Virus record (IMG/VR): IMGVR_UViG_3300032246_000397
Span: 186-64,185 of that record
From: a virus
Taxonomy: Duplodnaviria; Caudoviricetes
DNA: 64,000 nt
Direction: 5' to 3' (one strand)
Position numbers and translations under genes: made by a program. A model generated the notes under the pieces. It saw nothing but the letters and a program-made list of their open reading frames with translations. It made no database searches and was not told the DNA's origin. Shown piece after piece: positions 25,364 to 41,120 of this stretch (the first letter of the stretch is position 1; each line of letters opens with the position of its first letter).

Positions 25364-25384
25364 AACTGTCCTTTAACTAAATAT

Positions 25385-25556: not shown

Positions 25557-25563
25557 CCACCCA

Positions 25564-25875: not shown

Positions 25876-25877
25876 GA

Positions 25878-26114: not shown

Positions 26115-26770
26115 TATCTTTCCTTGTGAAACTCACATGTTTTAACGGGGCACCATCCACATAAAGGGGTTGGGTTTGGATTCCATATATTATTTTCGTA
26201 TGAAATGTTTAATCTTTCAAGGTCTGTACTAAAATAATTCCATAGCTTAGGAATCTGATCTCTTGTATATTCCTCTTCCATAAAACTTTCATGCATCACA
26301 AACAACAATCCAGCCTTAATAATCTTTACTTTGGGGAAGTGGGCAAACGCCATCAGCGCCATCAATTTTAACTGTTTTGGGTCAGGATAGCGATTAGACC
26401 CAGTCTTATAATCTACAATAAAAGCATGGTCGTTGTCCACAATAAGTAAGTCTACAATACCCCGCACCCAGCGATTATCGTCTGTAAACCCGCATGGTTG
26501 CTTATCTCTATCTAATGCCATCTCATACTCAGGGTATTTAGTTCCCGGAATTGCCACTAAAGAATCTAATACGGGTTGGAAACGTAAGTAGTTCTTAGCT
26601 AAGGGTTTACCCTCAGCCACATAATCTTCGCATGCTTTATGCACAACTGTACCGTAGAGCATCTGCTCGGTAGCTTTCTTTTCAAAACGTTTTAATACCT
26701 TTAACTCATGATACTGACGAGGGCAGTTAACGTATTCTTTAAGGGCGGAGAATGACCATGTAAAATTCAT
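26114..26770 (-). CDS. PD-(D/E)XK exonuclease (Cas4/RecB-like, Fe-S cysteines)
   Basis: N-terminal CP, GIVDLL..IVDYKTG, QL..MA, C-terminal LCGWCPVKTC. Confidence 0.85.
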   Translation of the reverse strand: MNFTWSFSALKEYVNCPRQYHELKVLKRFEKKATEQMLYGTVVHKACEDYVAEGKPLAKNYLRFQPVLDSLVAIPGTKYPEYEMALDRDKQPCGFTDDNRWVRGIVDLLIVDNDHAFIVDYKTGSNRYPDPKQLKLMALMAFAHFPKVKIIKAGLLFVMHESFMEEEYTRDQIPKLWNYFSTDLERLNISYENNIWNPNPTPLCGWCPVKTCEFHKER

Positions 26771-26779
26771 ATTTACCTA

Positions 26780-27031
26780 TTATACCAAATCATCTTTATT
26801 AAAACCTTTTTCAAACAAGGCTCGTCGAATTTTTTTGAACGCACTTTCTTCTATATTTCGCACAGTTTGACGACTAACACCCAATGCTTTGGCTATTTCT
26901 TCTTGCGTCATGTTACCGTTATCGGTTTCAGAAATATCTACCATACCAGCAAACGGAATCGGTTCTAAGCCTAGTTCACGTTCTAGTTCTATCATCGCCT
27001 TAATCCTATCTTCGGTAGTAAAAGTTGTCAT
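26780..27031 (-). CDS. Sigma70 region-4-like HTH protein
   Basis: MTQEEIAKALGVSRQTVRNIEESAFKKIR. Confidence 0.75.
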   Translation of the reverse strand: MTTFTTEDRIKAMIELERELGLEPIPFAGMVDISETDNGNMTQEEIAKALGVSRQTVRNIEESAFKKIRRALFEKGFNKDDLV

Positions 27032-27198
27032 TTCTCTTGTACCTTTCCAGTTACTAATTCATCAATTAGCCTTAACTCAGTTTTCAACGCTTCTATTTCA
27101 GCTTGTTGCTGTCGTAGCATGGTGGCTATTTCTTCTCTAGTTACCAGCTTGTACCAGCTATCTACTTCTAATAGGTCAGCTAGTTCATTTGCGTTCAT
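27028..27198 (-). CDS. 56-aa hypothetical protein (not in ORF track)
   Basis: MNANELAD...ATMLRQQQAEIEALK; ATGA coupling at both ends. Confidence 0.6.
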   Translation of the reverse strand: MNANELADLLEVDSWYKLVTREEIATMLRQQQAEIEALKTELRLIDELVTGKVQEK

Positions 27199-27458
27199 TT
27201 CTCTTGTGCCTTTCTAATTATTTCTCTGCAAAATTTATAATCAAGTTTTGTTAAACAGTCATATCCTTTAAAGTCATAGACTTCGCACCATAAATCAGTT
27301 ATTTCTTTGTCTGTTAGGGCATTGGCTAAATCTTTTTTTGGATGGGTGTAGAGTGGAGTTTCAGTCATATCTTCCCAAAGCATTTTCTCTTTAACAAAAG
27401 ATAACTTCGATGCTCCATTAGATTTCTCATACATCCACGCTACTGGTTCATTGTTCAT
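27195..27458 (-). CDS. Hypothetical protein
   Basis: EPVAW...PLYTHP...LTDKEI motifs common in phage ORFs. Confidence 0.6.
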   Translation of the reverse strand: MNNEPVAWMYEKSNGASKLSFVKEKMLWEDMTETPLYTHPKKDLANALTDKEITDLWCEVYDFKGYDCLTKLDYKFCREIIRKAQEK

Positions 27459-29335
27459 TTCCACTCTTTCATATCTCCGTAATTGCGACCATACTGCGCT
27501 TCACATGCTACTGGTAAACCCTTAGCCCAATCAGGTGGGCTGGACATAACCTCGACAATCCATGCACAAGCCTCATCTACCTCATCATCGGGAACTACGC
27601 ACACCGCCGCATCGTGAACTGTCAGCACGGGGCGATAACGCTCAGTAAGTTTAATCATTTGTTCGCCCACGACAATCCGTGCAAGAGCTTGAACTACGTT
27701 CTCTACCACTGATCCGCCCCATAGAGACACGGGGCCCTTTCGTGACTTATATTGGTATCCGCTAGTAGTTTCATCTGTATTGAGTTGAAGTTCTGGGTAA
27801 CGTATGTATAAACCGTTTGGTAACTGTATACCATCGCTATACACTTTTACACATTTATTTTTACCATAATAAAAAGGTTTTTGTTCGGGTTGCCAATCAG
27901 CCATAATCTTTAATGCCTTGTCGCCTTCTCTCCATAGTTTTACAATCATATCATTAGTATCTCTGTACAATTTTACTATTTCGTCACACTTCTCTTTAGT
28001 AAGGTCAGCGCCTGGCGGCGATGTTTTCAGTGTGTGCTGTAACTTTAATGCGCCAGTACCATATCCGAGACCGAGTATGCAGGTTTTACCCACGAACCTT
28101 TCAACAGAGTCTTTTTTGGTGATGGGTCTATCATATATTTTCGACGCAAAGATGGAGTAAACATCATCTCCCAATTGGAACTCTTCAACCAAGTCGGTCT
28201 GACCCGAAAGCCAAGCGAGAACTCTTGCCTCAATCTGAGACGAGTCGCAATTGATAACCGTATATCCCTCTGGGGCAACCACCGCTTGCTTAAGAGTTTT
28301 TTTCTTAGCGTCACGGGACGGGAGATTTTGGAAGTTGACCTTGTCCGACCCCGCCCAACGACCCGTGTGTGCCCCGTAGTATTTAAGTGGGATGGGCAAT
28401 CTTCCTCTATTACGAGACCCAACGTCAATGAATCTTTCAATTCTACTTTCCTCAATAGTTGATTTTGTACCCAAACGCACCGCAGCGAGTTGTTGAATAA
28501 ATGGGTTTTCGTGTTCAGTCAACGCTATGAACCCTACATCGTTTTTTGCCAAAGCGTAGGTTTGCTTGCCAGTAGTCTTACTTTCTTTCATAGGTACTTC
28601 AACACCAAATTCTTCCAGCACCGTAGCGAATTGTTTATTACTAGCTAGTTTTTTGCGAACCGCCTCTTCGTTTTCGCATTGTAATTTTTCTTTTAATGTC
28701 CCTAATAACTGTAATTTCTCGTGTTTTAGCTCTTCTAACCGGTCATTTAGTAGGGCATCATCAACCTCTAAAATTGGATTAATAAACATCCGCAAAGTTA
28801 AATCAATCAGTTGTAACTCTTCTTGTGGAAACGCGCTCGACAATACTTGGAAAAGCTTATAAGTTAGTTCTACATCGTTTTTGCAATATTCGCCGTACTG
28901 GGCAAGCTCGCTATTTGTGAAGCCAGTTATATTCTTTCCTTTAGCCTCAACGACTTCCGTACCCTTCGTGCCTAGTTTGTAACGCTCAGATAGGTATGCT
29001 AAAGAGCCACCCACGTCTACCCCATTAGTCGCTCTACCCATGCAAAGTGTATCGAGATATAACTTGGGCTTGATACCAAACCGCCACGCTAGGATAGCCC
29101 CGTCAAACATAGTGTTATGGCAAAGTAAAGCGGAATCATTCCACGGTAGGGTGGAAAGGTATTTTTGAGTTTCAAGGTGTGAGCCAGAAAACCATTGCGT
29201 GATACCGTCGTCGATCTTAACACCAACACCGATGACTTCAAATCTTCTATCCCTGATGTATTCCTCAGTTGTTAGCTTGGATAGCGAAAAGTCTTGAGCA
29301 TAGTAGGTCTCAAAATCTAGTGTAATTAGTTGCAC
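27455..29335 (-). CDS. polA: DNA polymerase family A with 3'-5' exonuclease (Leu762 type)
   Basis: LDFET / HNTMFD / YCKND exonuclease motifs; HTGRW, NFQN, DSSQIEAR, KTCILGLGYG, VHD. Confidence 0.92.
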   Translation of the reverse strand: MQLITLDFETYYAQDFSLSKLTTEEYIRDRRFEVIGVGVKIDDGITQWFSGSHLETQKYLSTLPWNDSALLCHNTMFDGAILAWRFGIKPKLYLDTLCMGRATNGVDVGGSLAYLSERYKLGTKGTEVVEAKGKNITGFTNSELAQYGEYCKNDVELTYKLFQVLSSAFPQEELQLIDLTLRMFINPILEVDDALLNDRLEELKHEKLQLLGTLKEKLQCENEEAVRKKLASNKQFATVLEEFGVEVPMKESKTTGKQTYALAKNDVGFIALTEHENPFIQQLAAVRLGTKSTIEESRIERFIDVGSRNRGRLPIPLKYYGAHTGRWAGSDKVNFQNLPSRDAKKKTLKQAVVAPEGYTVINCDSSQIEARVLAWLSGQTDLVEEFQLGDDVYSIFASKIYDRPITKKDSVERFVGKTCILGLGYGTGALKLQHTLKTSPPGADLTKEKCDEIVKLYRDTNDMIVKLWREGDKALKIMADWQPEQKPFYYGKNKCVKVYSDGIQLPNGLYIRYPELQLNTDETTSGYQYKSRKGPVSLWGGSVVENVVQALARIVVGEQMIKLTERYRPVLTVHDAAVCVVPDDEVDEACAWIVEVMSSPPDWAKGLPVACEAQYGRNYGDMKEWK

Positions 29336-29367
29336 TTAAATCCTTAAATAACAAATTCAATAGATAC

Positions 29368-29402
29368 AAAAATAGGGAGCAAAGCCTAAGCCTAACTCCC
29401 TA
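29368..29402 (-). terminator. Intrinsic terminator upstream of polA
   Basis: - strand TAGGGAG...CTCCCTA-TTTTTG. Confidence 0.6.
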
Positions 29403-29406
29403 AAGG

Positions 29407-29703
29407 TTACTGTTTTTCTAGTATAGCAATCTCACGCTTGAGATACCACTCAGCTTTCTTTAAGTCTTCTAAGTTTTTTCCCTTATAGTCTGCCCTAGAA
29501 ATATATTTAACAACGTTGCCTAGGTTATACCCTAAGTGTTTAGCCTCAATAAAATCAATCGTCTCAATGCCACCAGCTTTGTAATGCGCTGGGCTGTTGA
29601 CGTTGTCCGTTACTACTTCCTTAGGTGGTCTTCCACGCTTACGTGGAACGCTATTTAATAGTCTTTGTCCATACCTAGTTTCTGCAAATTTAAGTTTAGC
29701 CAT
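29407..29703 (-). CDS. DUF3310 (T7 gp1.7-like) protein with AT-hook
   Basis: RKRGRPPK; DNVNSPAHY..GGIETID; GNVVKYISRA..K..EDLKKA.WYL. Confidence 0.8.
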   Translation of the reverse strand: MAKLKFAETRYGQRLLNSVPRKRGRPPKEVVTDNVNSPAHYKAGGIETIDFIEAKHLGYNLGNVVKYISRADYKGKNLEDLKKAEWYLKREIAILEKQ

Positions 29704-29914
29704 TTTTACTTCTCCTTTTAGTTGAACTACGTTTGACTGCCAAAATACCTTCTTCGGTTTCGTGCTTGCGAGCCTCTATCATTGCGTCTGCTATTTCATA
29801 TGACCGTCTTGCAATGCAATCTTCGGGCATAAGCTCGGGATGCAAACCACCTCTAGCAATGATTCCGTTTAATGCAAACATCGCAAAACAATCTCTTAGG
29901 TCTTGTTCATTCAT
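29696..29914 (-). CDS. Hypothetical protein
   Basis: LRDCFA...YEIADAMIEAR motif common in phages. Confidence 0.65.
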   Translation of the reverse strand: MNEQDLRDCFAMFALNGIIARGGLHPELMPEDCIARRSYEIADAMIEARKHETEEGILAVKRSSTKRRSKNG

Positions 29915-30119
29915 CTTTTATCTCACGATTCTTTTTAAACAAATAGTCATTACGATACTCACTAGGCGGAATAAACCCAAACTTTTTAAAGGTCTTCATT
30001 ACATCTGCGCCAGCAGTCCAAACAAATTTGGAATTACGATCAATAGCCATATCTTGTTTATGTTCCTGTTTTATTTCATTGTCTATTGCTCTTAACTTAC
30101 GAAAGGTTCTTATACTCAT
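29907..30119 (-). CDS. Hypothetical protein
   Basis: Coupled ORF. Confidence 0.55.
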   Translation of the reverse strand: MSIRTFRKLRAIDNEIKQEHKQDMAIDRNSKFVWTAGADVMKTFKKFGFIPPSEYRNDYLFKKNREIKDE

Positions 30120-30406
30120 ATGAAATATAACTCCATGTATTGATTAACAGTATGCTCATTCACTACAAAAGCAGTACCCCCACTATCCTCTATCCTGTTG
30201 AGATTGTCTTGTTGCAATGCAGTAACCTGTCCGTTGTTGGCTTTACATTCTATCCCATAGAACTTTCCTTTATGACATACTAAAAAATCAGGCGCACCGC
30301 TACTGCCGTAACCGCCTGTGGCTGGCATGACATAATAGATTTCTTTCTCTTTGAGTATCTTCTTAACCTTGTCTTTAACTTTTCCTTCGGGGGTTTGTGC
30401 CATCAC
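30116..30406 (-). CDS. VRR-NUC nuclease / Holliday junction resolvase-like
   Basis: TPEGKVK, GAPDF, IECKA, TALQ. Confidence 0.8.
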   Translation of the reverse strand: MMAQTPEGKVKDKVKKILKEKEIYYVMPATGGYGSSGAPDFLVCHKGKFYGIECKANNGQVTALQQDNLNRIEDSGGTAFVVNEHTVNQYMELYFI

Positions 30407-30738
30407 TCTTCTCCTCTAAGTTTCATTAACGATGGGTACGGCAACACTATGACAAAATAACTATCGCTTGTTTGCCACCCAATTTCTATTAGTTCTTCAT
30501 CTTTCAATGTAGTCATCAACATCAGGCTAGTCAACTCATGGTCTTGGAGTATCTGTTGTGGTCTTGACAAGATCATAGCCATCTTGGTTTTAATTTCATC
30601 GGGCAACGTCTGCTCATCAAACTCACGAGTAAAATTATCGCCAACATATATCGTGTATTTATTTCCTACCTTACGCAACGGCACACGATACAAGTCCCAA
30701 TTATATTGATGCACTATCGGGCTTAGTTTTTCTAGCAT
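30403..30738 (-). CDS. Hypothetical protein
   Basis: Coupled ORF; likely start ATG 30738. Confidence 0.55.
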   Translation of the reverse strand: MLEKLSPIVHQYNWDLYRVPLRKVGNKYTIYVGDNFTREFDEQTLPDEIKTKMAMILSRPQQILQDHELTSLMLMTTLKDEELIEIGWQTSDSYFVIVLPYPSLMKLRGEE

Positions 30739-31655
30739 GGGAACATCGCCCAAGTTAAGTTATATTCATCCGTACCACGGACACACGCAAGTATAACGTC
30801 GAGATCAGGCAAGTAGTCATTCTCTTGTGGAAGGTAACTACCATATAGTTTCTTGCCTTCATATTTGTTTTGGCTGAACACTTTTAACATCAACATAATT
30901 GGCTGAATATCCTCATACTCTGATAGGTCTTTAATTCGTTTAAAAGGTTTAACAACGTCGAACTTTCTGTCTTTATCATTCTTCTTCAAAACCCCTACAA
31001 CCAAGTGATTAAAGGAGTCTGCGCCTATTGCATAAAATCCATTGTCAAAAAAGCGAGCAATATCTTTATCTCTTACGTCTTTTATTTTATCTATTTCGTC
31101 GTACTTGTCAAGTATTTCTTTACATTTATTTAATGTTATTTGGTGAGCATTTTCTCCTCTAAAAACTTGTCGCAATAAAGAATGAATTTCATCGCTTTCT
31201 AGTGAGACACGCTTACTAATATTTCCGTGATGACTTGAAAGTCCTTGCACCGCAGTTCTAAAACAATCCTCATGGCGCATTTTTATCATTCCATCAAGGG
31301 GTGGAACGACCTCATTGCGTTTCAAAGTCGCCATCAATGTTGATAGTTTTTTACTGTGAAGTGTTTCTCTGTCAGCCGAGCCAGATCCGCGCTCTTTACG
31401 ATAGTATGGTGAACGATAGTTATAAATGATGTTCTCACCATCCTTTTCAAGAAAAATCTTGGCAATGACAAACGCACCGCTAGACTCAGTAAGTAAAAAC
31501 TGTTCGGCGATGCCAGCCAAAGGTCTAGTATCAACACTAAGAACTTTTAGTCCAAACTTAAAATTCAATTCCTGTATGAATCTTTTGCATGGAGACTTTT
31601 CTATGTATGATGTTAGTTCTTCGGTCTCAAAACCTTCTACGATATATTTATTCAT
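30732..31655 (-). CDS. Hypothetical protein (307 aa)
   Basis: Long ORF with GGAG RBS. Confidence 0.7.
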   Translation of the reverse strand: MNKYIVEGFETEELTSYIEKSPCKRFIQELNFKFGLKVLSVDTRPLAGIAEQFLLTESSGAFVIAKIFLEKDGENIIYNYRSPYYRKERGSGSADRETLHSKKLSTLMATLKRNEVVPPLDGMIKMRHEDCFRTAVQGLSSHHGNISKRVSLESDEIHSLLRQVFRGENAHQITLNKCKEILDKYDEIDKIKDVRDKDIARFFDNGFYAIGADSFNHLVVGVLKKNDKDRKFDVVKPFKRIKDLSEYEDIQPIMLMLKVFSQNKYEGKKLYGSYLPQENDYLPDLDVILACVRGTDEYNLTWAMFPC

Positions 31656-31665
31656 TTACTTCTCC

Positions 31666-32685
31666 TTAGTATTGTTCGACTTCTTTATCACCGACATAAA
31701 TCTCTACACCCCACTCTGATGGTGGATAATACGTATTGGGTGTATGTTCTACAAGTTTCATTACCGATGGGTTAGCTTTATACAACTCTTTGTTTAGCTT
31801 GCGCTTGATGTTACAGAACAAGTCCGCTAGTTCTAGTTCTCCTTGTCCATAATAAGTAGCTTGTTGGGGATTGAGGGTGGTTCTTATCTTAGCGTACAAA
31901 TGGCTTAGGTCATGCGCTAACGCATAGGCTACACAACTATCAAGTGGCGCTTCGTTTAAATTCTTATCAGCAAACTCGATAAGATTTAACTTTGCCGTTT
32001 GATTCAAGTACCAATCTTCTTTAAAGTCAGCCCCGCATTTAAAACCTACTTCTATTGCCACTTCCACAAAGCCCTTCCAGTCCATAGACTTCAACATCAC
32101 CTCGTTAATCGTATAAAAGTCTTGGTATCGCTTAAGAAACTCTTTACCTTGCTTACGGCTAACACGCTTGCCGATAATTCTATACTCGCTACCTTTTGCT
32201 GGTAACATGGTGTCGCACTCGATACGCATGCCTTTAAAGATTGGGTGGAACACGTCAGAACTTCTATATATCATTCCACCATGACGTGAACTCCTAAAGA
32301 AGTAACCTTGAGTCCAGCTACTCATGATCTGATTATCTCCTTGCCCATAGTTCTTAGCAGTAAACTCAAAAGTATTATCAGAGCGAACTATGCCCAACTC
32401 ATTTGGTATGCTAAGGTAACTGCAATACATTGTTGTCGGGTCAGTATCCCATTGGCGATGGTGTATGCTTGATGGATTTGCTTTGTACTCTGCCTCGGTA
32501 TGATACCGTTCAAGATAAGTGTAACCATATCTAACAACATAAACCTTTTCGCCGTTACGTTCCTCGACAACAAAGTCTTTTCTGTTATGAGTTCTTTTAC
32601 CGATAGGATACCGATTAGTAGTACCCCTATACGGCTTTTGAGTTTCAGTAATTCCAGTAAGTCTATTCCAAGATAGTCCAATCAT
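31666..32685 (-). CDS. Hypothetical protein (339 aa)
   Basis: Long ORF with GGAG RBS. Confidence 0.7.
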   Translation of the reverse strand: MIGLSWNRLTGITETQKPYRGTTNRYPIGKRTHNRKDFVVEERNGEKVYVVRYGYTYLERYHTEAEYKANPSSIHHRQWDTDPTTMYCSYLSIPNELGIVRSDNTFEFTAKNYGQGDNQIMSSWTQGYFFRSSRHGGMIYRSSDVFHPIFKGMRIECDTMLPAKGSEYRIIGKRVSRKQGKEFLKRYQDFYTINEVMLKSMDWKGFVEVAIEVGFKCGADFKEDWYLNQTAKLNLIEFADKNLNEAPLDSCVAYALAHDLSHLYAKIRTTLNPQQATYYGQGELELADLFCNIKRKLNKELYKANPSVMKLVEHTPNTYYPPSEWGVEIYVGDKEVEQY

Positions 32686-32912
32686 TCTGCTTCTCCTTTG
32701 TTAAGTTCGTCTAAATCATTTAATACATTTCGCCACATATTCATACCTAAGTCGTCGCCATGCTTTTCAAACTCCAAGAATCTTTCTAACGCATACAAAT
32801 GCGCTTTATCCCCATGAGACTCTATGGTTGCTCTCGTTAAGTCTTGATTAAAGTAAGTGCTATGCCTATCGGTGTGATACCACTCGTCATCTGCTTCATC
32901 ATATTTCGGCAT
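32682..32912 (-). CDS. Hypothetical acidic protein
   Basis: Coupled ORF. Confidence 0.55.
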   Translation of the reverse strand: MPKYDEADDEWYHTDRHSTYFNQDLTRATIESHGDKAHLYALERFLEFEKHGDDLGMNMWRNVLNDLDELNKGEAE

Positions 32913-32914
32913 GA

Positions 32915-34228
32915 TTAGTCCTTATCAAATATAACTTTCTTGCCACATGGAACTTCCAAGCTCTTGTTCTGAGTAATCATCCACAGGGTAGGTGGAACGA
33001 TATCCCACACAATGTCATTCTCTACATACCCGTCGGTAAACACGATGACGCACTCTGCGCTAAGTTTCTTCTCCTTGATGTATTTCGCTACACATGAGAC
33101 GTGAGTACCGCCACCGCCTAATGGTTTTAGTAGCGATGCAATGGATTGATATTGGTCAGGCTTAAAGACTTGTTCGCCATGCACTTCGGCATCCCACCAT
33201 ATAACTCTTACTACATCAGGCGACACTAAGTCACAGATGGATGCCAGTTCTGTTGCAAACTCCGTAAGTTCTACACCACCGATAGACCCCGACGTATCAA
33301 TAGCCACGATGACCTCGCCGATAGTTTCGTTCTCCATGCTTGGCATATAAATATCATTCGCCATGTGACGCTTGTTCATCTTGCGCCAAGTAAACTCATC
33401 TTTGCCTTTCATGGTAGATGACACAAAGTCACGCAACGCATCTCGCCAATCTATCTTAGGTTCAAGCAAGTCGCTGATTGCTCTAGGAAGTTTCCCACCC
33501 ATACGACCAGCAAGCATACCGCCTTCACGCAACGCTCTGTCAATCTTGTCATTCAAGTCTTTAACATCTTCGGGGCTGATGTTCTCCCAGTCATGCTCGT
33601 CGAATCCATCGCCACCCATGTCATAGTCTTTGCCGTTGGCTTTGATTACGTCGTCGCTATTTTGCTTTCCACCCGATGATGGATCGCTACCTTGCTCGTC
33701 ATCACCCACGCCGTTTCCTTCGTCTTTGCCTGAGCCAGATGAGCTACCTTTAGGTTTTTGTCGTTGAGGATTTTCCTTACGGATATAGTTATAGACCTCA
33801 CGCATATTCCAGTTGTGAAAGAACGGATCATACAACGCACCATCAGGCAACTCGACCAACTGCTCATTACCACCAGCGACCTTTCCCTTGATGTTAGCGA
33901 TGATGTCATTGACTACAAAATCCGCCGCCATGTTTGCAACCTTGCTATCTTCCTTCCACATATCCTTACCACGAGGGATTTGTTTCAATGCCACATGAAG
34001 ATTCTCATGCAAGACCAGACCACGCAACTTGGGTTCGGATAAAATAGTTTCTAAGAATGGGCGAGAATACTTCTTGTTCACACCGTCGGTGTATGCCGTA
34101 AACATATTCTCACTCACCTCTGACTTACCCATCAGCATTACACCGCTATACAACGCAGTCTCATGGTGCTTCATCAATGTTACGTGGGCTTTTTTCAAGC
34201 GTACTTCTTGTTTGTTTTTCACTTCCAT
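32915..34228 (-). CDS. Metallopeptidase (HExxH) + vWA domain protein (DUF2201-like)
   Basis: AYTDG, HENLH, DTSGS MIDAS, GGGT, FTDG. Confidence 0.85.
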   Translation of the reverse strand: MEVKNKQEVRLKKAHVTLMKHHETALYSGVMLMGKSEVSENMFTAYTDGVNKKYSRPFLETILSEPKLRGLVLHENLHVALKQIPRGKDMWKEDSKVANMAADFVVNDIIANIKGKVAGGNEQLVELPDGALYDPFFHNWNMREVYNYIRKENPQRQKPKGSSSGSGKDEGNGVGDDEQGSDPSSGGKQNSDDVIKANGKDYDMGGDGFDEHDWENISPEDVKDLNDKIDRALREGGMLAGRMGGKLPRAISDLLEPKIDWRDALRDFVSSTMKGKDEFTWRKMNKRHMANDIYMPSMENETIGEVIVAIDTSGSIGGVELTEFATELASICDLVSPDVVRVIWWDAEVHGEQVFKPDQYQSIASLLKPLGGGGTHVSCVAKYIKEKKLSAECVIVFTDGYVENDIVWDIVPPTLWMITQNKSLEVPCGKKVIFDKD

Positions 34229-34230
34229 GA

Positions 34231-34422
34231 TTACTCCTTGATATCAATGATTTCTACATGGTCTTCGGTAATAACAATCTTAGATGTTCCGTCGACCACA
34301 CGCTTTAGTTTATAGATAGTAAGACCTATAAATTCCTGATACTGATTACGTTTAAAAAAGTACAAGACAGTCATAGTCACCGCCCATACAATTAAAAATG
34401 TTTCGCTATTACTTATTTCCAT
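34231..34422 (-). CDS. Small membrane protein
   Basis: RBS AAGGAG; N-terminal TM. Confidence 0.55.
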   Translation of the reverse strand: MEISNSETFLIVWAVTMTVLYFFKRNQYQEFIGLTIYKLKRVVDGTSKIVITEDHVEIIDIKE

Positions 34423-34515
34423 TTACTTCTCCTTTATTAAACAGATTAAAAAACCAACCATGATCCCCAATGCAAAAGCTATTAGAGTCCAAAGATATAG
34501 TGCGATTGCGTACAT
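34423..34515 (-). CDS. 30-aa TM micropeptide (not in ORF track)
   Basis: MYAIALYLWTLIAFALGIMVGFLICLIKEK; stop abuts the next ATG. Confidence 0.45.
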   Translation of the reverse strand: MYAIALYLWTLIAFALGIMVGFLICLIKEK

Positions 34516-34543
34516 AGTTATCCACCCTTCAATGGAAAGTTAA

Positions 34544-35617
34544 TTAGAACAACTCGTGATTATTCTTAGCCCAGTCTGCAATCTGCAAATTGTGTCGGGC
34601 AAGTTTCATCGCCTTGGTGTTACGCATCATCATAGTAAAGAACACCGCTTGCACCTCTGAACTAGGAATTTTATTAACAAACTTCATGAACTTGGTTAGT
34701 TCGTCTTGCGTATCAATAGTGTCTACTGCTTGAAACATAATCATTAACTGCGCTGATATCTCTTCGGGAACTTTTATTCCGTCTGGATCTTTGATGATAT
34801 CTTTTACATCCACTAGAGTTTTCTCCAACGATAGAAACGCTGACATATCACCAGCGCCACTAGCACCGATAGTGCCAGCCAATGCGACCATCGTTGCGTT
34901 ATCACCCAATGTATCTCGATTCTTCACAATCACATCGCACTTAGCTAATGAACGGGGCGAACAGAAAGAAAGATTAGTTTTCTTAGGGTTGAAAATGTAT
35001 GGGTTATCATCTTGATCTCCAGTACGATAGCTTGCCAATGTCCGAGGGAACATAGCTACGAACGCACGAACAACACGAGAAACACCCCTAGCTGATGACC
35101 ACTCTAGCCATTCATTAACGCTTGGCTTTGCCATCTCCATAATACATACACGATTACCAGCATGAGCCAACATCGTATCGCCCACCCCATCGCTTGCATT
35201 GTTTGACGTGCCGAAAACGATACTACCTTTGGGCAACGCTTTGTCGCCGACCATTCTCTCCAACATCAGACGGGTAAAGATAACTTGCAATAGCTTTGGT
35301 GACTTCATGAACTCGTCGAGCAAGATAACCTTTGGCTTAGGAGAGTCAAGTTTGAAGAGAGATGAAACATAATACTCAAGCGACTGCGTAGCATGGTTTG
35401 GAATAGTCATACCTACGTCGGACATATCCTTGACTGGGCAGTCCACATAAATGTAATCGTACTTGTCACCGAAGTCTTCCTCAATCATAGATAAGATCGA
35501 AGTCTTGCCACAACCCGGCTCGCTCACTATGATTGGTGTGATTTCTGAACCTATTAGGGGAATGGTTTTACGCAACTCGTTAATAGTTACTGTGGAATTG
35601 AAATTGATTTTAGACAT
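34544..35617 (-). CDS. AAA+ ATPase (MoxR/dynein-related)
   Basis: SEPGCGKT, ILLDEF, GTSN, NR, SPRS. Confidence 0.85.
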   Translation of the reverse strand: MSKINFNSTVTINELRKTIPLIGSEITPIIVSEPGCGKTSILSMIEEDFGDKYDYIYVDCPVKDMSDVGMTIPNHATQSLEYYVSSLFKLDSPKPKVILLDEFMKSPKLLQVIFTRLMLERMVGDKALPKGSIVFGTSNNASDGVGDTMLAHAGNRVCIMEMAKPSVNEWLEWSSARGVSRVVRAFVAMFPRTLASYRTGDQDDNPYIFNPKKTNLSFCSPRSLAKCDVIVKNRDTLGDNATMVALAGTIGASGAGDMSAFLSLEKTLVDVKDIIKDPDGIKVPEEISAQLMIMFQAVDTIDTQDELTKFMKFVNKIPSSEVQAVFFTMMMRNTKAMKLARHNLQIADWAKNNHELF

Positions 35618-35642
35618 TTGCTTCTCCTTGTTTAGATTGTCA

Positions 35643-36557
35643 TTACTGCATGGAACTGAAACTACCGAACTTGCTCAAGATATCGTCTATCCCTTCCTTC
35701 ACATGATGGCGCACCGCATCGGAATCACGGATATCTTCTGCTTTGACACCATCTAATACTTTCTCCAACGACAGGCGAGCTTGCTCCAATCCTGAATCAT
35801 TCTTAAGATTGAATCGCTTAAAACTTTCGATGTAATCTCTTGCTTTCTGAATCGTACCTTCGTAGATTTTGCGACGCTTGGTACGCAACTCGCCATTGAC
35901 CTCTGACTCATCTACACCACAACAGTGGCTAATGGACTCCATCACCTCGACCAATCTCTCTGACTGTTCTTGTGCAATCGAATCTATAATGCCGTGCGAT
36001 TGCTTTGTGTATGTTGTAAACAAATCATCAGCGATATCCTGCGCTATGCCACAACGAAAGTCGTTCATCGGAACTTCGGACACATAAAGGTTCAAGCTGA
36101 ACTTGCTCGCCACTTGTTCTTTAGTTGGGTAGTCCGCACGATTGAACATAGTGCCTTGCTTGAAAGCCATGTCCGACACGATTGAATCGTAGTCCGTTGT
36201 TAATGAATCCACGAGAGAGTGGAAAGCTAATTCGTGTTCGTGATACTCTTGCTTGAACTTGGGTACGTCAACGCTAGGTAATAATTGTTGCGATTGATTC
36301 CATTTGTAAGTCCGACGCTGAAGCCAGTTATAGATGGTCTGCCGATAATTCACCACCGCCTTATGCTTGGGATGGTTAGCTAACAGATTCTTAACATACC
36401 TGCCCGCCGACTTGTCAGCGTTCTTTGCCGTAGTAACTTCATCGCTGATGCCCCTGTCTTGCTTGGTGGCTGACCACACGCTTATGTCTACGCTGACTAA
36501 CACCGCCGACGATGCAAGCGAGATCAGATGATCGGGTTTGGTTAATTCCATATTCAT
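35643..36557 (-). CDS. Helical protein accompanying AAA/vWA pair (DUF3150-like)
   Basis: VDISVWSATK...KNLL..ADYPT pattern; context. Confidence 0.5.
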   Translation of the reverse strand: MNMELTKPDHLISLASSAVLVSVDISVWSATKQDRGISDEVTTAKNADKSAGRYVKNLLANHPKHKAVVNYRQTIYNWLQRRTYKWNQSQQLLPSVDVPKFKQEYHEHELAFHSLVDSLTTDYDSIVSDMAFKQGTMFNRADYPTKEQVASKFSLNLYVSEVPMNDFRCGIAQDIADDLFTTYTKQSHGIIDSIAQEQSERLVEVMESISHCCGVDESEVNGELRTKRRKIYEGTIQKARDYIESFKRFNLKNDSGLEQARLSLEKVLDGVKAEDIRDSDAVRHHVKEGIDDILSKFGSFSSMQ

Positions 36558-36576
36558 ATACTTCTCCTTGGTTGAT

Positions 36577-36684
36577 TTACTTCAAAAATAAAAGATGCTC
36601 GAAAAATCCAAAATCCACGACGACGTGGATAGCTAAATAAAACAATGCGACTATTACTAAACACTTACCAAAAAAGTTATCCAT
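36577..36684 (-). CDS. 35-aa TM peptide
   Basis: GGAGG RBS before ATG 36684; directly behind promoter at 36709-36737. Confidence 0.55.
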   Translation of the reverse strand: MDNFFGKCLVIVALFYLAIHVVVDFGFFEHLLFLK

Positions 36685-36708
36685 GATGTTCCTTCCTCCA
36701 GTTTCATA

Positions 36709-36737
36709 AGTATACCACAACTTTACATATAAATCAA
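36709..36737 (-). promoter_or_regulatory. Sigma70 promoter, class B (TTGATT-N17-TATACT, extended -10)
   Basis: Near-identical to 37704-37732; shares GTAAAGTTGTGGTATACT. Confidence 0.75.
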
Positions 36738-36760
36738 TAGTGGGGTATGAGTTTTTTATT

Positions 36761-36946
36761 TCACTCTTCGCCTGTAAACGTGCGTACCCAGTCCACATAG
36801 ATTTCATCACGGTAGAGCCACCTAGCCTCACGCTTACGATTAGGTTTATCTATCGGGTAGTTAACCAATATGGCATGGGTATCGCCACGCACTAGCTTGT
36901 AGTACTCGGGTTTGTCAGGTTTGCGATAGAGTTTGATTACTTTCAC
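36761..36946 (-). CDS. Hypothetical protein
   Basis: Coupled ORF; GAGG RBS. Confidence 0.55.
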   Translation of the reverse strand: MKVIKLYRKPDKPEYYKLVRGDTHAILVNYPIDKPNRKREARWLYRDEIYVDWVRTFTGEE

Positions 36947-37155
36947 GTTGTCCTCTTGGGGTTGAGTTGCTTGAGAATAGTCATGTCCGACACCATCATG
37001 TAATTGCTTTTGTTCATGGGTACGACTGTGAACTTCCTACTCTTTGCGAGGTCATCACCACATGGACAACAAATCGCATAGCCTAGCTTCAGTCGCCCAG
37101 CGTCGTACACATCTCCGCATAGCTTACACTGTGGGGTAAAAGTTTCATCAATCAT
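36943..37155 (-). CDS. C4 zinc-finger protein (DksA/TraR-like finger)
   Basis: CKLCG...RL....CCPC. Confidence 0.55.
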   Translation of the reverse strand: MIDETFTPQCKLCGDVYDAGRLKLGYAICCPCGDDLAKSRKFTVVPMNKSNYMMVSDMTILKQLNPKRTT

Positions 37156-37396
37156 GGTCGAACTCACAATATCCACAGTTTTCTACCAAGTGGCGAGCCA
37201 TGTCACCCAAGACACCTTCTATCTCTAGGATTAAATCTTCGCCATACTTATGTTGCCAACCTTGTAACGCAATACTTAGATTGTTGATGCGCTCCCATTC
37301 CTCTTCGGTGTCGTTGATAGCTGGAGGTGCAGTAACGCAATGAATAATGTCCTGCATATCCTCGTCTAGTTGTTGCTCAAAAGTTTTATTGCTCAT
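37148..37396 (-). CDS. Hypothetical acidic protein
   Basis: Coupled ORF. Confidence 0.55.
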   Translation of the reverse strand: MSNKTFEQQLDEDMQDIIHCVTAPPAINDTEEEWERINNLSIALQGWQHKYGEDLILEIEGVLGDMARHLVENCGYCEFDHD

Positions 37397-37599
37397 GGTA
37401 AGTATCCTTTCTCATCGCCGAATGACTGCTCATACTTGTCGAGCCAGTCGTTGAACTCCGCTTCGTGGATCGCCCACTCTTCGTCGCTATCTTCCATTCC
37501 ACTTAGTCGTGGATCAAGGTTTTGGAAGGTTTTACTGCCAGCACTTCGTTTGCTCCTCTCCTCATTGAATTGAATCATTGCTTGCTTTAGTTTGCCCAT
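37393..37599 (-). CDS. Hypothetical protein with acidic C-terminus
   Basis: AAGGAG RBS before ATG 37599. Confidence 0.55.
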   Translation of the reverse strand: MGKLKQAMIQFNEERSKRSAGSKTFQNLDPRLSGMEDSDEEWAIHEAEFNDWLDKYEQSFGDEKGYLP

Positions 37600-37703
37600 G
37601 TCCTTCTCCTTCATTAGAGTTGTAAATTCCACTACATCGTGGAAAGCTAAATAGCGTTGCTGGGTTCGGGTTGCTTCGTGAAATGTCGCCCATCAACATT
37701 ATT

Positions 37704-37732
37704 AGTATACCACAACTTTACTTATTAATCAA
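37704..37732 (-). promoter_or_regulatory. Sigma70 promoter, class B (TTGATT-N17-TATACT)
   Basis: Consensus spacing; -35 overlaps IHF consensus AATCAAGCTCTTA (37727-37739). Confidence 0.75.
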
Positions 37733-37767
37733 GCTCTTATATGACTTTTTTATACGAGACAAGAACC

Positions 37768-38138
37768 AAAAAATTCCAAGTTCGGTTGAAAAATTCCAGT
37801 AAAATTCCAAGTTCAAAAACCGATTTGGAATTTTTTTAGACGAGGTAAAATCGGGCTGGAAGCCTTATGTTATCTACTAGTAGTAGTAGTAAGATATATA
37901 TAAATATATAAAAAATTCCAAAATTCCAGTAAATAAAATAGAGGGCGGTACCTTGTAGTCGTTTTTTGCACTGGCTGGGCAAAGTCTTTGCTTGCTAAAT
38001 ATTTCCAATTTACCCTGCCCCCTCCTAAAAAAACTTGGAATTTTGGAATTTTTTAGAAATGTCCTTATAGATCAATGTCTTACAAGCGAAAAAAATTCCA
38101 ACTAGGTAAAAAAGTTCTGAATAGGTTTTTGGAATTTT
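37768..38138. repeat. Putative replication origin: 10 AAAATTCCA iterons in both orientations plus AT-rich tract
   Basis: + copies at 37770, 37790, 37801, 37912, 37920, 38092; - copies at 37826, 38036, 38044, 38130; GATATATATAAATATATA at ~37893. Confidence 0.7.
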
Positions 38139-38280
38139 TGATTTTGCATTGGGCCTGCTGTGTCTGAGCCACGTAACCTATCATTTCTTAGAATTCTAAA
38201 TGATGCATAGCCAAATTCCACTAGACCGTGGAAAGCTAAATAGCGACCTTGTGCTGGCAAAGGCAAGGCGTTCGCGCACG

Positions 38281-38307
38281 CGCTCGAGAACAAATAACTG
38301 GCTTCAA
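38281..38307. repeat. Conserved 27-bp box, copy 1
   Basis: CGCTCGAGAACAAATAACTGGCTTCAA. Confidence 0.9.
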
Positions 38308-38320
38308 AATCGCTAGGCGC

Positions 38321-38353
38321 AAAAAAAGGGACAGGGCAATTAAGCCCCATCCC
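38321..38353 (-). terminator. Intrinsic terminator
   Basis: GGGATGGGGC...GCCCTGTCCC-T7 after stop of 38365-38955. Confidence 0.7.
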
Positions 38354-38364
38354 TTAGAACTATC

Positions 38365-38955
38365 TTACTTGATAGCTTTTACAATCGCACTGATTACAGC
38401 ATCATCTACTGTACTATCTCCCCTGCCCTTAGCTGTCTTAGCACGGGTTTTGATAGTGTCTACTGTTTCAGCCAACCAAACAGCAAAATCTTTGGTAGGC
38501 GCACGGTCATGAGTCTTACCGTCCAGCTTATCCTTGTATTGCTTAACGTATCGTTTAAGATCCTTCATACGGTTGGATTTGTAATCGGACCAGTCATCCC
38601 GCCATCCCTTATGAATACCATGCTTGACGGGATCTTCGTTACGCCATTTACCAAACTCTTGAGAAGAGTAGGACATCACGACGTTGATATCAACCTTAAA
38701 TGCGCCATCAGTATCTTCTGATACTGGGATCCAATCAGCACTGTAGTACTGGGGAGGATTTAGCTCATTAAAACGTAACATCTGACCCGACTCAATCTCT
38801 ACTTTGATTTCATCAGGAATGGCATCTAAAAACGACGGGCATTTATTGTAGATAAACTGACCGATATTAATACCACGTTCAGAACTGATACAGCCTTGAT
38901 AGCTTGCGTCCTTCAAGCTAGTGATTTCGGACGTGAATGATTTTTTGATAATCAT
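38365..38955 (-). CDS. Early protein of unknown function, paralogue B
   Basis: Shares ITSxKD, PDExK, LRFNExN, GKxxNExP, WRD, YxSNRxxDLKR and AKxRGD with 39140-39787. Confidence 0.8.
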   Translation of the reverse strand: MIIKKSFTSEITSLKDASYQGCISSERGINIGQFIYNKCPSFLDAIPDEIKVEIESGQMLRFNELNPPQYYSADWIPVSEDTDGAFKVDINVVMSYSSQEFGKWRNEDPVKHGIHKGWRDDWSDYKSNRMKDLKRYVKQYKDKLDGKTHDRAPTKDFAVWLAETVDTIKTRAKTAKGRGDSTVDDAVISAIVKAIK

Positions 38956-38992
38956 CTCCTATATCTGACAGACCATTCTGTCATTAACTACA

Positions 38993-39021
38993 GTTCTACA
39001 CGACAGACCCCCTTATGTAAA
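38993..39021 (-). promoter_or_regulatory. Early promoter, class A (TTTACA-N17-TAGAAC)
   Basis: One of three aligned copies. Confidence 0.7.
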
Positions 39022-39065
39022 GTTCCATGACCTAGTGGACTCTTAAACAATGCGCTCGCTCGGTG

Positions 39066-39092
39066 CGCTCGAGGACAAATAACTGGTTTCAA
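39066..39092. repeat. Conserved 27-bp box, copy 2
   Basis: CGCTCGAGGACAAATAACTGGTTTCAA. Confidence 0.9.
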
Positions 39093-39104
39093 AATCGCAG
39101 GGCG

Positions 39105-39133
39105 AAAAAAAGGGGAGAGCCGAAGCCCTCCCC
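39105..39133 (-). terminator. Intrinsic terminator (UUCG loop)
   Basis: GGGGAGGGC-TTCG-GCTCTCCCC-T7. Confidence 0.85.
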
Positions 39134-39139
39134 AATCTG

Positions 39140-39787
39140 TTACTTATTCCATTGAACCATAAAAGCGTCAACGGCTAACTTCAACTTCGCCTCGTTCGCG
39201 GTCTCATCACCACGAGACTTAGCGTTCTTGCACTTCACGATCAAACCTTGATCGCCCTTGAACACTTCAACCACGCGTTGATTAAAGTCTAGCGTAGCGC
39301 CACGCTCTTTCGTTTTACCCTCGTTCAGGATAGTACGGGCTTGGCGCTTTAGATCGCCTAAGCGGTTAGAGCAGTAGGTGTTCACCTTGTCGCGCCATGA
39401 CTTGATGATTGCGTGTAGGTACGGATTTTCGTTTTTCAACTTACCGTACTGTTGTTGACTGAAACTGAAAGCGTAGTCAACACCAACAACCACCTTTTCA
39501 CGCTCATCTTCGAGAGCAGGGTTTGAGCCGTCGATCAATAAATAGTGATCGTTAACAATCGCGTAGCGTTCGGCTTTGTTCACTTCGTTAAAGCGTAAAC
39601 GATAGCCGTCATACAACTGCTCTTTGACTTCGTCGGGTACAGTTTCGGGAAACCCCTTTGACTGCTCCATAACATAGCGAGCAACACCACGCATACGGTC
39701 ATTAGCAACCGCTTGTTTATACGCACCATCTTTGAAAGAGGTGATCTGATCGTTTACTGCAGGTACTGCGAGGGCTTTAGTAGCCAT
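39140..39787 (-). CDS. Early protein of unknown function, paralogue A
   Basis: TAAGGAG RBS; own promoter and terminator; paralogous to 38365-38955. Confidence 0.85.
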   Translation of the reverse strand: MATKALAVPAVNDQITSFKDGAYKQAVANDRMRGVARYVMEQSKGFPETVPDEVKEQLYDGYRLRFNEVNKAERYAIVNDHYLLIDGSNPALEDEREKVVVGVDYAFSFSQQQYGKLKNENPYLHAIIKSWRDKVNTYCSNRLGDLKRQARTILNEGKTKERGATLDFNQRVVEVFKGDQGLIVKCKNAKSRGDETANEAKLKLAVDAFMVQWNK

Positions 39788-39847
39788 AGTAATGCTCCTT
39801 ATAAAATAAGTACTGCATGGGCAACACCATTGTTAACCCATGATTAA

Positions 39848-39876
39848 GTTATACGCTCACACGCTCCATATGTAAA
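39848..39876 (-). promoter_or_regulatory. Early promoter, class A (TTTACA-N17-TATAAC)
   Basis: One of three aligned copies. Confidence 0.7.
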
Positions 39877-39920
39877 GTTTCACCCCCTAGTGGATAGCTA
39901 GGCAACGCGCGCGCTTGATT

Positions 39921-39947
39921 CGCTCGAGGACAAATAACTGGTATCAA
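39921..39947. repeat. Conserved 27-bp box, copy 3
   Basis: CGCTCGAGGACAAATAACTGGTATCAA. Confidence 0.9.
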
Positions 39948-39952
39948 TAGGC

Positions 39953-39980
39953 AAAAAGAAAGCCGACCCGAAGGTCGGCT
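39953..39980 (-). terminator. Intrinsic terminator (UUCG loop)
   Basis: AGCCGACC-TTCG-GGTCGGCT-TTCTTTTT. Confidence 0.85.
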
Positions 39981-39985
39981 AAGTA

Positions 39986-40309
39986 CTACAAGGAATTGCT
40001 ACACATTCCACCATGCTTAAGTATCACTTGAATGATTACCTCAGCAGGAACCCAACAGAATACGGTGCTATCTTCACACTCATGAAAGGGCATGAGTAGC
40101 TCTTCATGCTGACTTGGATAACCTACCTCATACTGCACATATGCTGTAGTGTTATCAGTACGAGGCGTTGAGTAATGGTGCTTACTTGCCTGTACTGACA
40201 TGGTGAAACCGTCAGCACATTCGATTGGCGTAGCAACATTAGTGCTATCTTTAGTACTAGCTATATGCTTATTGATAGCAGTCCAAGTAGGTAGGATATT
40301 GACTCTCAT
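39986..40309 (-). CDS. Hypothetical early protein
   Basis: AAGGAG RBS before ATG 40309; CADGFTMSVQAS..HYS.PR..EVGYPS motif seen in phage ORFs. Confidence 0.65.
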   Translation of the reverse strand: MRVNILPTWTAINKHIASTKDSTNVATPIECADGFTMSVQASKHHYSTPRTDNTTAYVQYEVGYPSQHEELLMPFHECEDSTVFCWVPAEVIIQVILKHGGMCSNSL

Positions 40310-40473
40310 TCTATTTCTCCTTCTGCGCTTATTAGTAAAGTAATACCGATAGTTGATACGACAGTGCCTGCGATATACAGTAGACCGCCATGCTCCCATG
40401 TGTTGACCACAAAGAAACAAAATGCAACAGTGTTGACGAACATTAAGAACATCAGTGATTTGAATGTAAACAT
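40306..40473 (-). CDS. Small two-TM membrane protein
   Basis: AAGGAG RBS before ATG 40473; two hydrophobic segments. Confidence 0.6.
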   Translation of the reverse strand: MFTFKSLMFLMFVNTVAFCFFVVNTWEHGGLLYIAGTVVSTIGITLLISAEGEIE

Positions 40474-40516
40474 TTGAAACTCCTTGATTAGTGGGGGGCT
40501 TGCGCCCCCCTGTTGG

Positions 40517-40744
40517 TTATAAGAACTTGCGTACAATCCACTGAGCGTTGATGTAGTCAGGCTTGATGGACATCCGATTAAGTTCCTTGAACTTGGCTAG
40601 TGTTGCTTGCCCTTCATCAAACGTCAGGCAATGATGTCGTGCCAGTGTGATACGTTTGAACTTATGTTTAGTATCTAGCAAGTGGTTAACAGGATTAACT
40701 ACTAACATCTCTATTACTAATGTACCTTCTAATTGGTCTTGCAT
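40517..40744 (-). CDS. First early gene, hypothetical
   Basis: AAGGAG RBS before ATG 40744. Confidence 0.6.
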   Translation of the reverse strand: MQDQLEGTLVIEMLVVNPVNHLLDTKHKFKRITLARHHCLTFDEGQATLAKFKELNRMSIKPDYINAQWIVRKFL

Positions 40745-40799
40745 GACATTCTCCTTGTAGTTAGTCATATGGTTTGCACTATTGCTTACCATGATTTAA

Positions 40800-40828
40800 G
40801 TTATACATGCCCTATCCCCATATGTAAA
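40800..40828 (-). promoter_or_regulatory. Early promoter, class A (TTTACA-N17-TATAAC)
   Basis: One of three aligned copies. Confidence 0.7.
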
Positions 40829-40829
40829 G

Positions 40830-41120
40830 TTTGCGGGCGCGCGACAACACCCCCATACACCCGTTTACCAGCTTGGTTCCATCCGCGCCCCATACCCCCT
40901 AATACAGACGAATAACTCCACAAATTTCTCAAACACAGACGCCTCAATTAATGCTTTAACCTATTGATATACAAACAAAAAAACATATATTTTTAACCGC
41001 CAAGACGTACCCCCTTGTAGTTTTTATGTCCTACGCCACAGATTCCGCCATACAGAACACCCCCCGTCTGTTTTAGATTAGGCATATCCCCATATACATT
41101 TTTGTAAATTTTAAGATACA
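40830..41120. other. Divergent non-coding region, candidate genome end / pac region
   Basis: Strand switch point; C-run repeats on + strand; IHF consensus at 40957-40969; upstream of packaging genes. Confidence 0.4.

Follow-up and report, generated by a model that had tools for sequence, protein, structure and literature searches.

Dispersed clade-specific palindromes in the early arm of a freshwater podovirus-like genome: candidate operators for a phage-encoded dimeric regulator

INTRODUCTION

According to the available portions of PMC6550527 and PMC9283540, phages L5, Bxb1, and other Cluster A mycobacteriophages carry stoperators, 13-bp asymmetric sites that are bound by a monomeric two-domain repressor and dispersed genome-wide in these temperate phages. 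In the same sources, stoperators are numerous, short, and phage-specific, are located largely in short intergenic gaps and mostly in one orientation relative to transcription, act to stop elongation, and have a motif that varies among related phages in step with the repressor. Here we describe palindromes of the form TCCAC-N6-GTGGA in a viral genome (Duplodnaviria; Caudoviricetes), IMG/VR record IMGVR_UViG_3300032246_000397, for which the closest described logic is that of the stoperators. The window analyzed is a stretch of 64,000 nucleotides (nt), bases 186 to 64185 of this 64,185-bp record, which has terminal repeats. Like stoperators, the sites are dispersed (13 in the window) and oriented relative to transcription (by a flanking box with a bias of 91:36, the core itself being symmetric), and their half-sites are clade-specific and, judging from one clean switch, may be linked to one replaced gene (the tests on alignment columns are weak). 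Unlike stoperators, with their asymmetric 13-bp motif and monomeric helix-turn-helix (HTH) repressor, the element is a 16-bp palindrome with a one-sided box, its candidate reader is a predicted homodimer without a fold match, and the sites all fall within some 11 kb of the early arm of an apparently lytic genome.

Other systems offer partial parallels. In the immunity and replication modules of lambdoid phages and iteron plasmids, otherwise similar genomes swap a protein gene together with the palindromic or iterated sites that its product recognizes; the gene controls its own expression and lies next to an iteron origin. Here, too, a gene and its apparent cognate sites change together beside an origin-like iteron region, but those modules have their sites packed into some 100-200 bp at the operator or origin, whereas these occupy about 11 kb, in many cases fall within genes, and were converted one by one. 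Hairpin promoters of the N4 type need a phage RNA polymerase and have a conserved 3- to 4-nt loop, as described in the available part of PMC9163698. Like the hairpin promoters of N4 and LUZ7, the elements described here are short inverted repeats just upstream of early or middle genes, in a genome whose replication genes are distantly N4-like.

RESULTS AND DISCUSSION

A 16-bp palindrome is enriched in and confined to the early arm

Exact copies of TCCAC-N6-GTGGA number seven in the window, where 0.02 are expected, and with at most one mismatch there are 13 (0.94 expected); none of 100 shuffles reached either count. All 13 are within 29140-39894, over 10.7 kb of the early minus-strand arm, and thus all in the interval 29001-41000, with none in the remaining early-arm part examined (19255-29000). 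The late arm (41,675 nt) has no site at up to one mismatch, in agreement with an earlier note on this DNA, which had seen no clear copy there by eye. All ten sites listed in that note are present, although their cores begin one base later because a flanking base had been counted; the six reported as perfect (29140, 36208, 36614, 37498, 37628, and 38217) are exact, and the four reported with one mismatch start at 31290, 34521, 39024, and 39879. Three sites had been overlooked, an exact one at 29632 and one-mismatch sites at 32275 and 33668. The spacer is 6 nt at every site and variable in sequence, as previously noted, and one-mismatch variants fall on either arm. A literature search with the motif strings matched no paper (supplements were outside the search), and the promoters of phiEco32 and 7-11 have different motifs.

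Several palindromes lie within genes, namely polA, g307, g304, g68, the DUF3310 gene (29632), g339 (32275), and the DUF2201/VWA gene (33668). Four of the five intragenic placements proposed earlier (polA, g307, g304, and g68) are as described, and the fifth, at 36577-36684, is in a hydrophobic open reading frame (ORF) of 35 amino acids (aa) whose reality is uncertain. When the 31 early-arm genes (19,269 nt) were shuffled with their codons preserved, exact intragenic sites averaged 0.29 against four observed, and sites with up to one mismatch averaged 1.78 against seven observed; in none of 500 such synonymous-codon shuffles was the observed number matched, either for exact sites or at up to one mismatch. 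We conclude that the palindrome is a real feature and is under selection at the DNA level. We note that the palindrome at 29632-29647 encodes part of an AT-hook-like peptide, PRKRGRPPK, such that a DNA signal overlaps a DNA-binding peptide motif.

In the direction of transcription, the full element consists of a TAWWTAGC box, 2 nt, and the 5-N6-5 palindrome. The earlier note had reported a one-sided tail; this is real and is longer than described, being the TAWWTAGC box. In the window, a box matching at least six of eight positions is on the transcription-upstream side at eight of the 13 sites and on the downstream side at four. Among 202 distinct sites in the window and its relatives, the box is present at 139 (1.1% background), upstream only at 91, downstream only at 36, and on both sides at 12. 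The sites had been described as converging on the origin, and this is not confirmed: the boxes are mostly transcription-upstream both before and after the iteron region and are not mirrored about the iterons. In two relatives (L043, 1403-1457; L045, 4813-4867) there are tandem palindromes 23 bp apart with boxes on their outer sides, just before a start codon, an arrangement that looks like a double operator.

Half-sites are clade-specific and change in concert

For comparison, 80 loci from relatives were fetched with the AAA ATPase as bait, and their half-sites were determined by de novo scanning for 5-mer inverted repeats. Each clade has its own commonest half-site (TCCAC, CCCAC, TTCAC, TTCCG, TTCAG, TGTAGTG, or TCGTCGT) in a fixed 5-N6-5 layout, and the box is common to the TCCAC, CCCAC, TTCAC, and TTCCG clades. 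Individual relatives have three to nine exact sites. In all ten relatives that were searched whole, the exact sites form a single cluster of 0.4 to 13.5 kb, such that the confinement to one part of the genome seen in the window holds in each of them. Three positions (before g304, after the ATPase gene, and inside the VWA gene) are occupied in orthologous fashion by each clade's own half-site. The VWA site is the only conserved island in a hypervariable Gly/Ser/Asp-rich coding linker, and its flanks are identical in L050 (TCCACagtcggGTGGA) and L051 (CCCACagtcggGTGGG). At the intragenic g304 site, conservation of the DNA is confounded with that of an F-H-x-L-V-D peptide, and phages of the CCCAC clade lack the site.

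One clean switch is seen between loci L069 and L070, whose aligned flanks share about 89% identity. All of the orthologous palindromes examined, about nine sites, have been converted in situ, with TCGTCGT-N6-ACGACGA in L069 and TTGTAGT-N6-ACTACAA in L070, the two differing at the same two positions of both arms. Between the same two phages, a 1.2-kb segment has been replaced that contains one ORF only, of 214 aa in L069 and 225 aa in L070. It is preceded by two palindromes of its own and followed by a noncoding stretch, and it occupies the same slot as the paralogous genes pA and pB of the window. The L070 slot ORF has orthologues in all three of the other GTAGT-type loci (73-84% identity) and none in L069, and no other ORF of at least 55 aa switches likewise, short overlapping-frame ORFs aside, when L069 is compared with L070, L075, L076, and L077. 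The L069 and L070 slot ORFs have no sequence similarity to each other or to pA and pB. In a second pair, L050 and L051, pA and pB are 58% and 53% identical, with most proteins at 78-90%. We regard the in situ conversion of some nine sites between such closely related phages as a plain instance of regulator and regulon evolving together.

Because the palindromes of L069 and L070 differ in spite of the identity of their flanks, a host factor is unlikely to be the reader. This bears directly on host DnaA, which had been named earlier as a possible binder; the palindromes would then be inverted pairs of DnaA boxes. The attraction of this idea is that CTTTCCAC resembles the relaxed DnaA box, TTWTNCACA, which the TTCAC variants also fit. 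However, DnaA boxes are a host-conserved 9-mer, and the half-sites here differ both by clade and between near-identical phages: CCCAC, TTCCG, GTAGT, and GTCGT do not fit the box, its ninth position is not conserved, and neither the clade-specific GTAGT and TTCCG half-sites nor the L069/L070 conversion can be explained by a host protein of this kind. The DnaA explanation is already contradicted by these data and has next to no likelihood. The concerted change of half-sites between clades and between near-identical phages instead agrees with the earlier suggestion of a phage-encoded and specific reader, which is probably dimeric.

A protein slot that switches with the palindrome type

Four window proteins had been put forward as binders: the paralogues pA and pB, an HTH protein (22207-22518), and a sigma-r4-like protein (26780-27031). 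We favor the paralogues, as their slot switches with the palindrome type, they have their own sites ahead of them, and pA is a predicted homodimer. The homodimer prediction scores 0.79 for pA against 0.38 for the best control; the predicted dimer is symmetric, contact agreement among runs is at least 92%, and the predicted local distance difference test (pLDDT) score of the partner is at least 84. Among proteins solved as pairs, 20 of 30 reached the mark used, as did one of 23 solved as single chains; these counts hold only roughly because our own alignment was used. Models of pA (pLDDT 90.2) and the L070 slot protein (pLDDT 83.8) have the same order and placement of helices and a β-hairpin, and a weak profile match is collinear with this (E 0.014, probability 3%). 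Foldseek searches of PDB and BFVD with both slot proteins returned no match at E ≤ 0.001; the best VIA Z scores were 6.0-6.5, for the C-terminal helices only, and a search of the ESM Atlas gave only unnamed viral clusters (scores 0.88-0.89). NCBIfam, Pfam, and PHROGs gave no match for pA, pB, g304, g307, g339, or Zn77. A quick tree of the paralogues was compared with palindrome type and with iteron type; it mirrors the general phylogeny and is uninformative.

The other two candidates did not survive comparison with relatives. The HTH protein is conserved in 14 of 15 records, yet L069 and L075 have identical copies of it despite their different palindromes, and it is rejected as the reader. The sigma-r4-like protein, also rejected, is present in one of five complete or near-complete relatives and in one of the 80 loci, although the gene next to it is present in 25. 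We note that the HTH protein (103 aa, minus strand) is encoded just upstream of the primase-helicase gene and has an almost invariant recognition helix, (T/S)RMT(V/I/L)(H/F/Y)SWFRG; a conserved element, for example the TAWWTAGC box, could be what it reads.

Operator cassettes and an origin-like region

Three cassettes, c1 to c3, share one order (Table 1): a strong intrinsic terminator, a conserved AGTTATTTGTyCTCGAGCG stretch, a palindrome, and a promoter-like pair. The pairs are TTTACA-17-TATAAC before pA and TTTACA-17-TAGAAC before pB, and in the third cassette a TAGAAT lies 18 nt past the palindrome, reading into a noncoding stretch of about 450 bp. The earlier report that two sites abut -35 boxes is correct, the boxes being the -35-like TTTACA at 39871-39876 and 39016-39021; a palindrome 2 nt before a -35-like box is found at pA/pB-type promoters in several clades, and these sites look like operators, as the note had supposed for early promoters. 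Two identical extended -10 promoters, TTGATT-17-TGgTATACT, are about 1 kb apart, and each has a box and palindrome in its leader. A third promoter with the -10 sequence TATACT is at 41203-41175, at the head of the early arm. After each terminator there is an element GA(T/A)ACCAGTT(A/C)TTTGT (39930-39948, 39075-39093, and 38290-38308), which in relatives L031, L037, L050, L051, and L056 is present directly after a box-palindrome-box hairpin, ahead of the small gene before polA.

Table 1. Coordinates of the palindromes and associated features in the window
Feature	Coordinates	Strand	Comment
Terminator T1	39961-39980	-	Intrinsic; ahead of cassette c1
c1 palindrome, one mismatch	39879-39894	-	2 nt upstream of -35 TTTACA, pA promoter
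pA, 215 aa, candidate reader	39140-39787	-	Own promoter and terminator; predicted homodimer
Terminator T2	39112-39133	-	Intrinsic; after pA, ahead of cassette c2
c2 palindrome, one mismatch	39024-39039	-	2 nt upstream of -35 TTTACA, pB promoter
pB, 196 aa, pA paralogue (32% identity)	38365-38955	-	Own promoter and terminator
Terminator T3	38326-38355	-	Intrinsic; after pB, ahead of cassette c3
c3 exact palindrome and TATTTAGC box	38217-38242	-	18 nt upstream of TAGAAT (38193-38198), reading into iteron region
Origin-like noncoding region	37740-38190	.	10 TGGAATTT iterons on both strands (37771-38130) and AT-rich TATATATTTATATATAT tract
Promoter, sigma-70-like	37704-37732	-	TTGATT-17-TATACT preceded by TG
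Exact palindrome and TATTTAGC box	37628-37653	-	Leader of promoter 37732-37704, 28 nt before g68 start codon
Exact palindrome, no box	37498-37513	-	Within g68
Promoter, identical second copy	36709-36737	-	
Exact palindrome and TATTTAGC box	36614-36639	-	Leader of promoter 36737-36709, 56 nt before g304 start; overlaps possible 35-aa ORF
Exact palindrome and GAATTAGC box	36208-36233	-	Within g304, codons A-F-H-S-L-V-D
AAA ATPase	34544-35617	-	Replication set
Palindrome, one mismatch, and TAATTAAC box	34521-34546	-	Gap after ATPase gene
DUF2201/VWA gene	32915-34228	-	Replication set
Palindrome, one mismatch	33668-33683	-	Hypervariable linker of DUF2201/VWA gene; box downstream
Palindrome, one mismatch	32275-32290	-	Within g339
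Palindrome, one mismatch	31290-31305	-	Within g307
Exact palindrome and TAAATAGC box	29632-29657	-	Near 5' end of DUF3310 gene
Exact palindrome	29140-29155	-	Within polA; position kept in relatives, spacer variable
PolA	27455-29335	-	Replication set
Primase-helicase	19255-22140	-	Replication set
Virion protein, 2326 aa	12094-19074	+	LPD38 the sole domain matched
Ejection-like protein, 908 aa	9367-12093	+	

The explanation that we favor, and to which we give about an even chance of being correct, is that the sites are dispersed operators on double-stranded DNA for a phage-encoded dimeric regulator, most likely the product of the pA/pB slot. The centers of the half-sites are 11 bp apart, which would suit a dimer touching successive major grooves. 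Bound beside the -35 boxes of its own two promoters, the slot protein would be autoregulatory, and in the third cassette it would overlap the -35 position of the promoter reading into the origin-like iteron region. Over some 11 kb of early and replication genes, it would further be present in the leader of each of the two strong sigma-70-type promoters and in short gaps that immediately precede ribosome-binding sites. At these leader and gap sites, it would most likely be a polar block to, or a modulator of, host RNA polymerase, in the manner of stoperators. If confirmed, this would take the stoperator idea beyond temperate actinophages, to a freshwater podovirus lineage that is apparently lytic, and would provide a new DNA-binding fold together with a natural series of orthogonal protein-operator pairs. 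From sequence alone there is already a testable recognition code, in the form of a grammar for the sites, six or more natural variants of specificity, and one or two candidate reader genes whose fold is unmatched.

Several observations weigh against this explanation. The assignment of the reader comes from one clean switch event, and between L069 and L070 there is strong divergence in the g339 and g307 families as well (50% and 26% identity, respectively). Neither the pA model nor that of the L070 slot protein has a recognizable DNA-binding fold. Columns separating TCCAC-type from CCCAC-type phages number zero in pA/copy-1, and six in pB/copy-2 compared with 31 in 2757 residues of other proteins of the same loci, about threefold over matched controls. 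Most box-bearing sites precede a start codon by 11-30 nt and have no obvious sigma-70 promoter near them, and classical operator logic therefore fits only some of the sites. The box favors the transcription-upstream side by 91 to 36, a bias that a symmetric dimer does not need, and one orthologous site has arms that, outside the box, covary as in a true hairpin.

These last features suit a different reading, in which the elements are hairpins in RNA or in extruded single-stranded DNA, either as N4-like promoters for an unrecognized phage RNA polymerase or as processing or stability signals in which an AU-rich box and a stem-loop are read by a phage protein. In the sense direction the box tends to precede the stem, many sites are close before start codons, and at the covarying site (box-palindrome-box, then ATACCAGTT) the arms beyond the box covary in five distinct sequences; the half-site changes between clades are, moreover, exactly compensatory base-pair changes. 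The nearest cultured relatives of the ATPase are in N4-like phages, which have DNA-hairpin early and middle promoters (PMC9163698, available part). Mismatches at inner positions lean toward sense-strand G-U (31 versus 14, and 12 versus 3; these counts are not independent), but those at outer positions have the opposite strand bias, and the G-U wobble test is ambiguous. The predicted folds are weak (-3.7 to -10.5 kcal/mol), with those of c1 and c2 no better than shuffles, and the c1 to c3 palindromes are just after strong terminators and upstream of their promoters. At 48 of the 202 sites there is a downstream box, alone or together with an upstream one, and mismatches occur on either arm. No phage RNA polymerase was found with Pfam and PHROGs among the proteins submitted, with a six-frame PF00940 search, or with a PDB sequence search of the giant virion proteins. 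The stems are identical within a genome and the 6-nt loops are free, the reverse of the known hairpin promoters, which have conserved loops of 3-4 nt (PMC9163698, available part) and a transcription start 13-15 nt from the hairpin center. Taken together, we think that the hairpin reading is rather improbable. The 2326-aa giant virion protein has no similarity to N4 virion polymerases or other solved RNA polymerases; it may nonetheless contain a polymerase of an unrecognized type.

Alternatively, the same protein and sites could serve replication, with the pA/pB-slot protein being an origin-specific initiator or licensing factor and the palindromes being auxiliary loading or handcuffing sites. 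Rep proteins of iteron plasmids bind an inverted repeat as dimers, and lambda O dimers bind palindromic origin repeats. The slot gene adjoins the noncoding stretch in which iterons and an AT-rich tract are combined, a configuration that is likely to be an origin, and c3 is on a promoter that reads into the iterons. The iteron core TGGAA overlaps the half-site GTGGA, and an L043-type iteron, CGTGGAACAA, contains the half-site exactly; sites recur about every 0.1-1.7 kb over the replication genes, and the module switches specificity as replication or immunity modules do. However, the phages have several iteron types (TGGAATTT, TGGAACAA, TAGAACAA, and TAGAATTT) that assort independently of palindrome type across clades, which rules out the covariation of iterons with the palindrome and indicates that a second specificity exists. 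Also unfavorable to a replication role are that the sites reach 9 kb to one side of the origin only, with a box orientation that is not mirrored, that no known initiator fold is matched, and that many sites are positioned precisely before ribosome-binding sites, suggesting a role in gene expression. We consider it unlikely that replication is the primary role.

A third possibility, raised in the earlier note, is that of a parS-like system for partition, condensation, or protection, in which the palindromes would be loading points from which a protein spreads across DNA near the origin. The sites are palindromic, 16 bp long, often intragenic, and clustered in one part of the genome, and bacterial parS sites are distributed in a similar clustered fashion. 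But unlike in ParB-parS systems, no ParB-family protein was found, nor any ParA or SMC-like domain, in any protein scanned; the nearest signal is one weak HTH_ParB match (E 0.0018, below the family cutoff) in the sigma-r4-like protein, which is 83 aa long. No integrase or partition gene was seen among the proteins scanned, and no prophage or plasmid-maintenance genes were seen. Since the sites are, in addition, tied to promoters and ribosome-binding sites, we regard a partition-like function as very improbable.

Returning to dispersed operators, a broader version would have the dimeric protein and its dozen or so cognate sites constitute a private self-recognition module, whose specificity is rewritten genome-wide by converting the sites in situ when the protein is replaced. 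Such a module would amount to heteroimmunity, or to replication or transcription exclusivity, between co-infecting relatives. In a bolder form, the protein would recognize extruded hairpins and direct host polymerase, or an unrecognized phage polymerase, to them, which would represent a new class of structure-plus-sequence promoters. We offer these as doubtful extensions that are nonetheless worth stating.

Genome setting and additional features

The minus-strand genes extend from about 41,000 down to 19,255 and encode small early proteins and a replication set, whose members beyond those in Table 1 are VRR-NUC, DUF3310, PD-(D/E)XK exonuclease, and SNF2 helicase proteins. The plus strand encodes terminase, portal, capsid, SU10-type adaptors, tail proteins, a GH19 lysin, and the 2326-aa virion protein. 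The ends of the record are assembly repeats inside the late arm, and the "early end" is thus not a physical end, as far as these data show. By ATPase, the closest cultured relatives are N4-like podoviruses, at about 25% identity; a megablast search against phage records gave a single 57-bp match and nothing more. The public runs that contain the sequence are freshwater metagenomes, where it is present as contigs, and no RNA data set is listed among them. The phage apparently belongs to a distantly N4-like freshwater podovirus lineage and is apparently lytic.

Some further features of the genome are of note. The adjacent genes g339 and g307, encoding proteins of 339 and 307 aa (30732-32685, minus strand), have no assigned function and contain one one-mismatch site each; they are very fast-evolving, with median identities across relatives of 40% and 33%, respectively. 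A 77-aa protein (36943-37176, minus strand) has a CxxCG...R...CxxC pattern that resembles TraR/DksA-type zinc fingers, although there is no Pfam match, and is kept in 59 of the 80 loci. Finally, the 2326-aa virion protein has distant matches (24% identity over 26% of its length) in phages of Vibrio, Ralstonia, and Burkholderia with genomes of about 60 kb.

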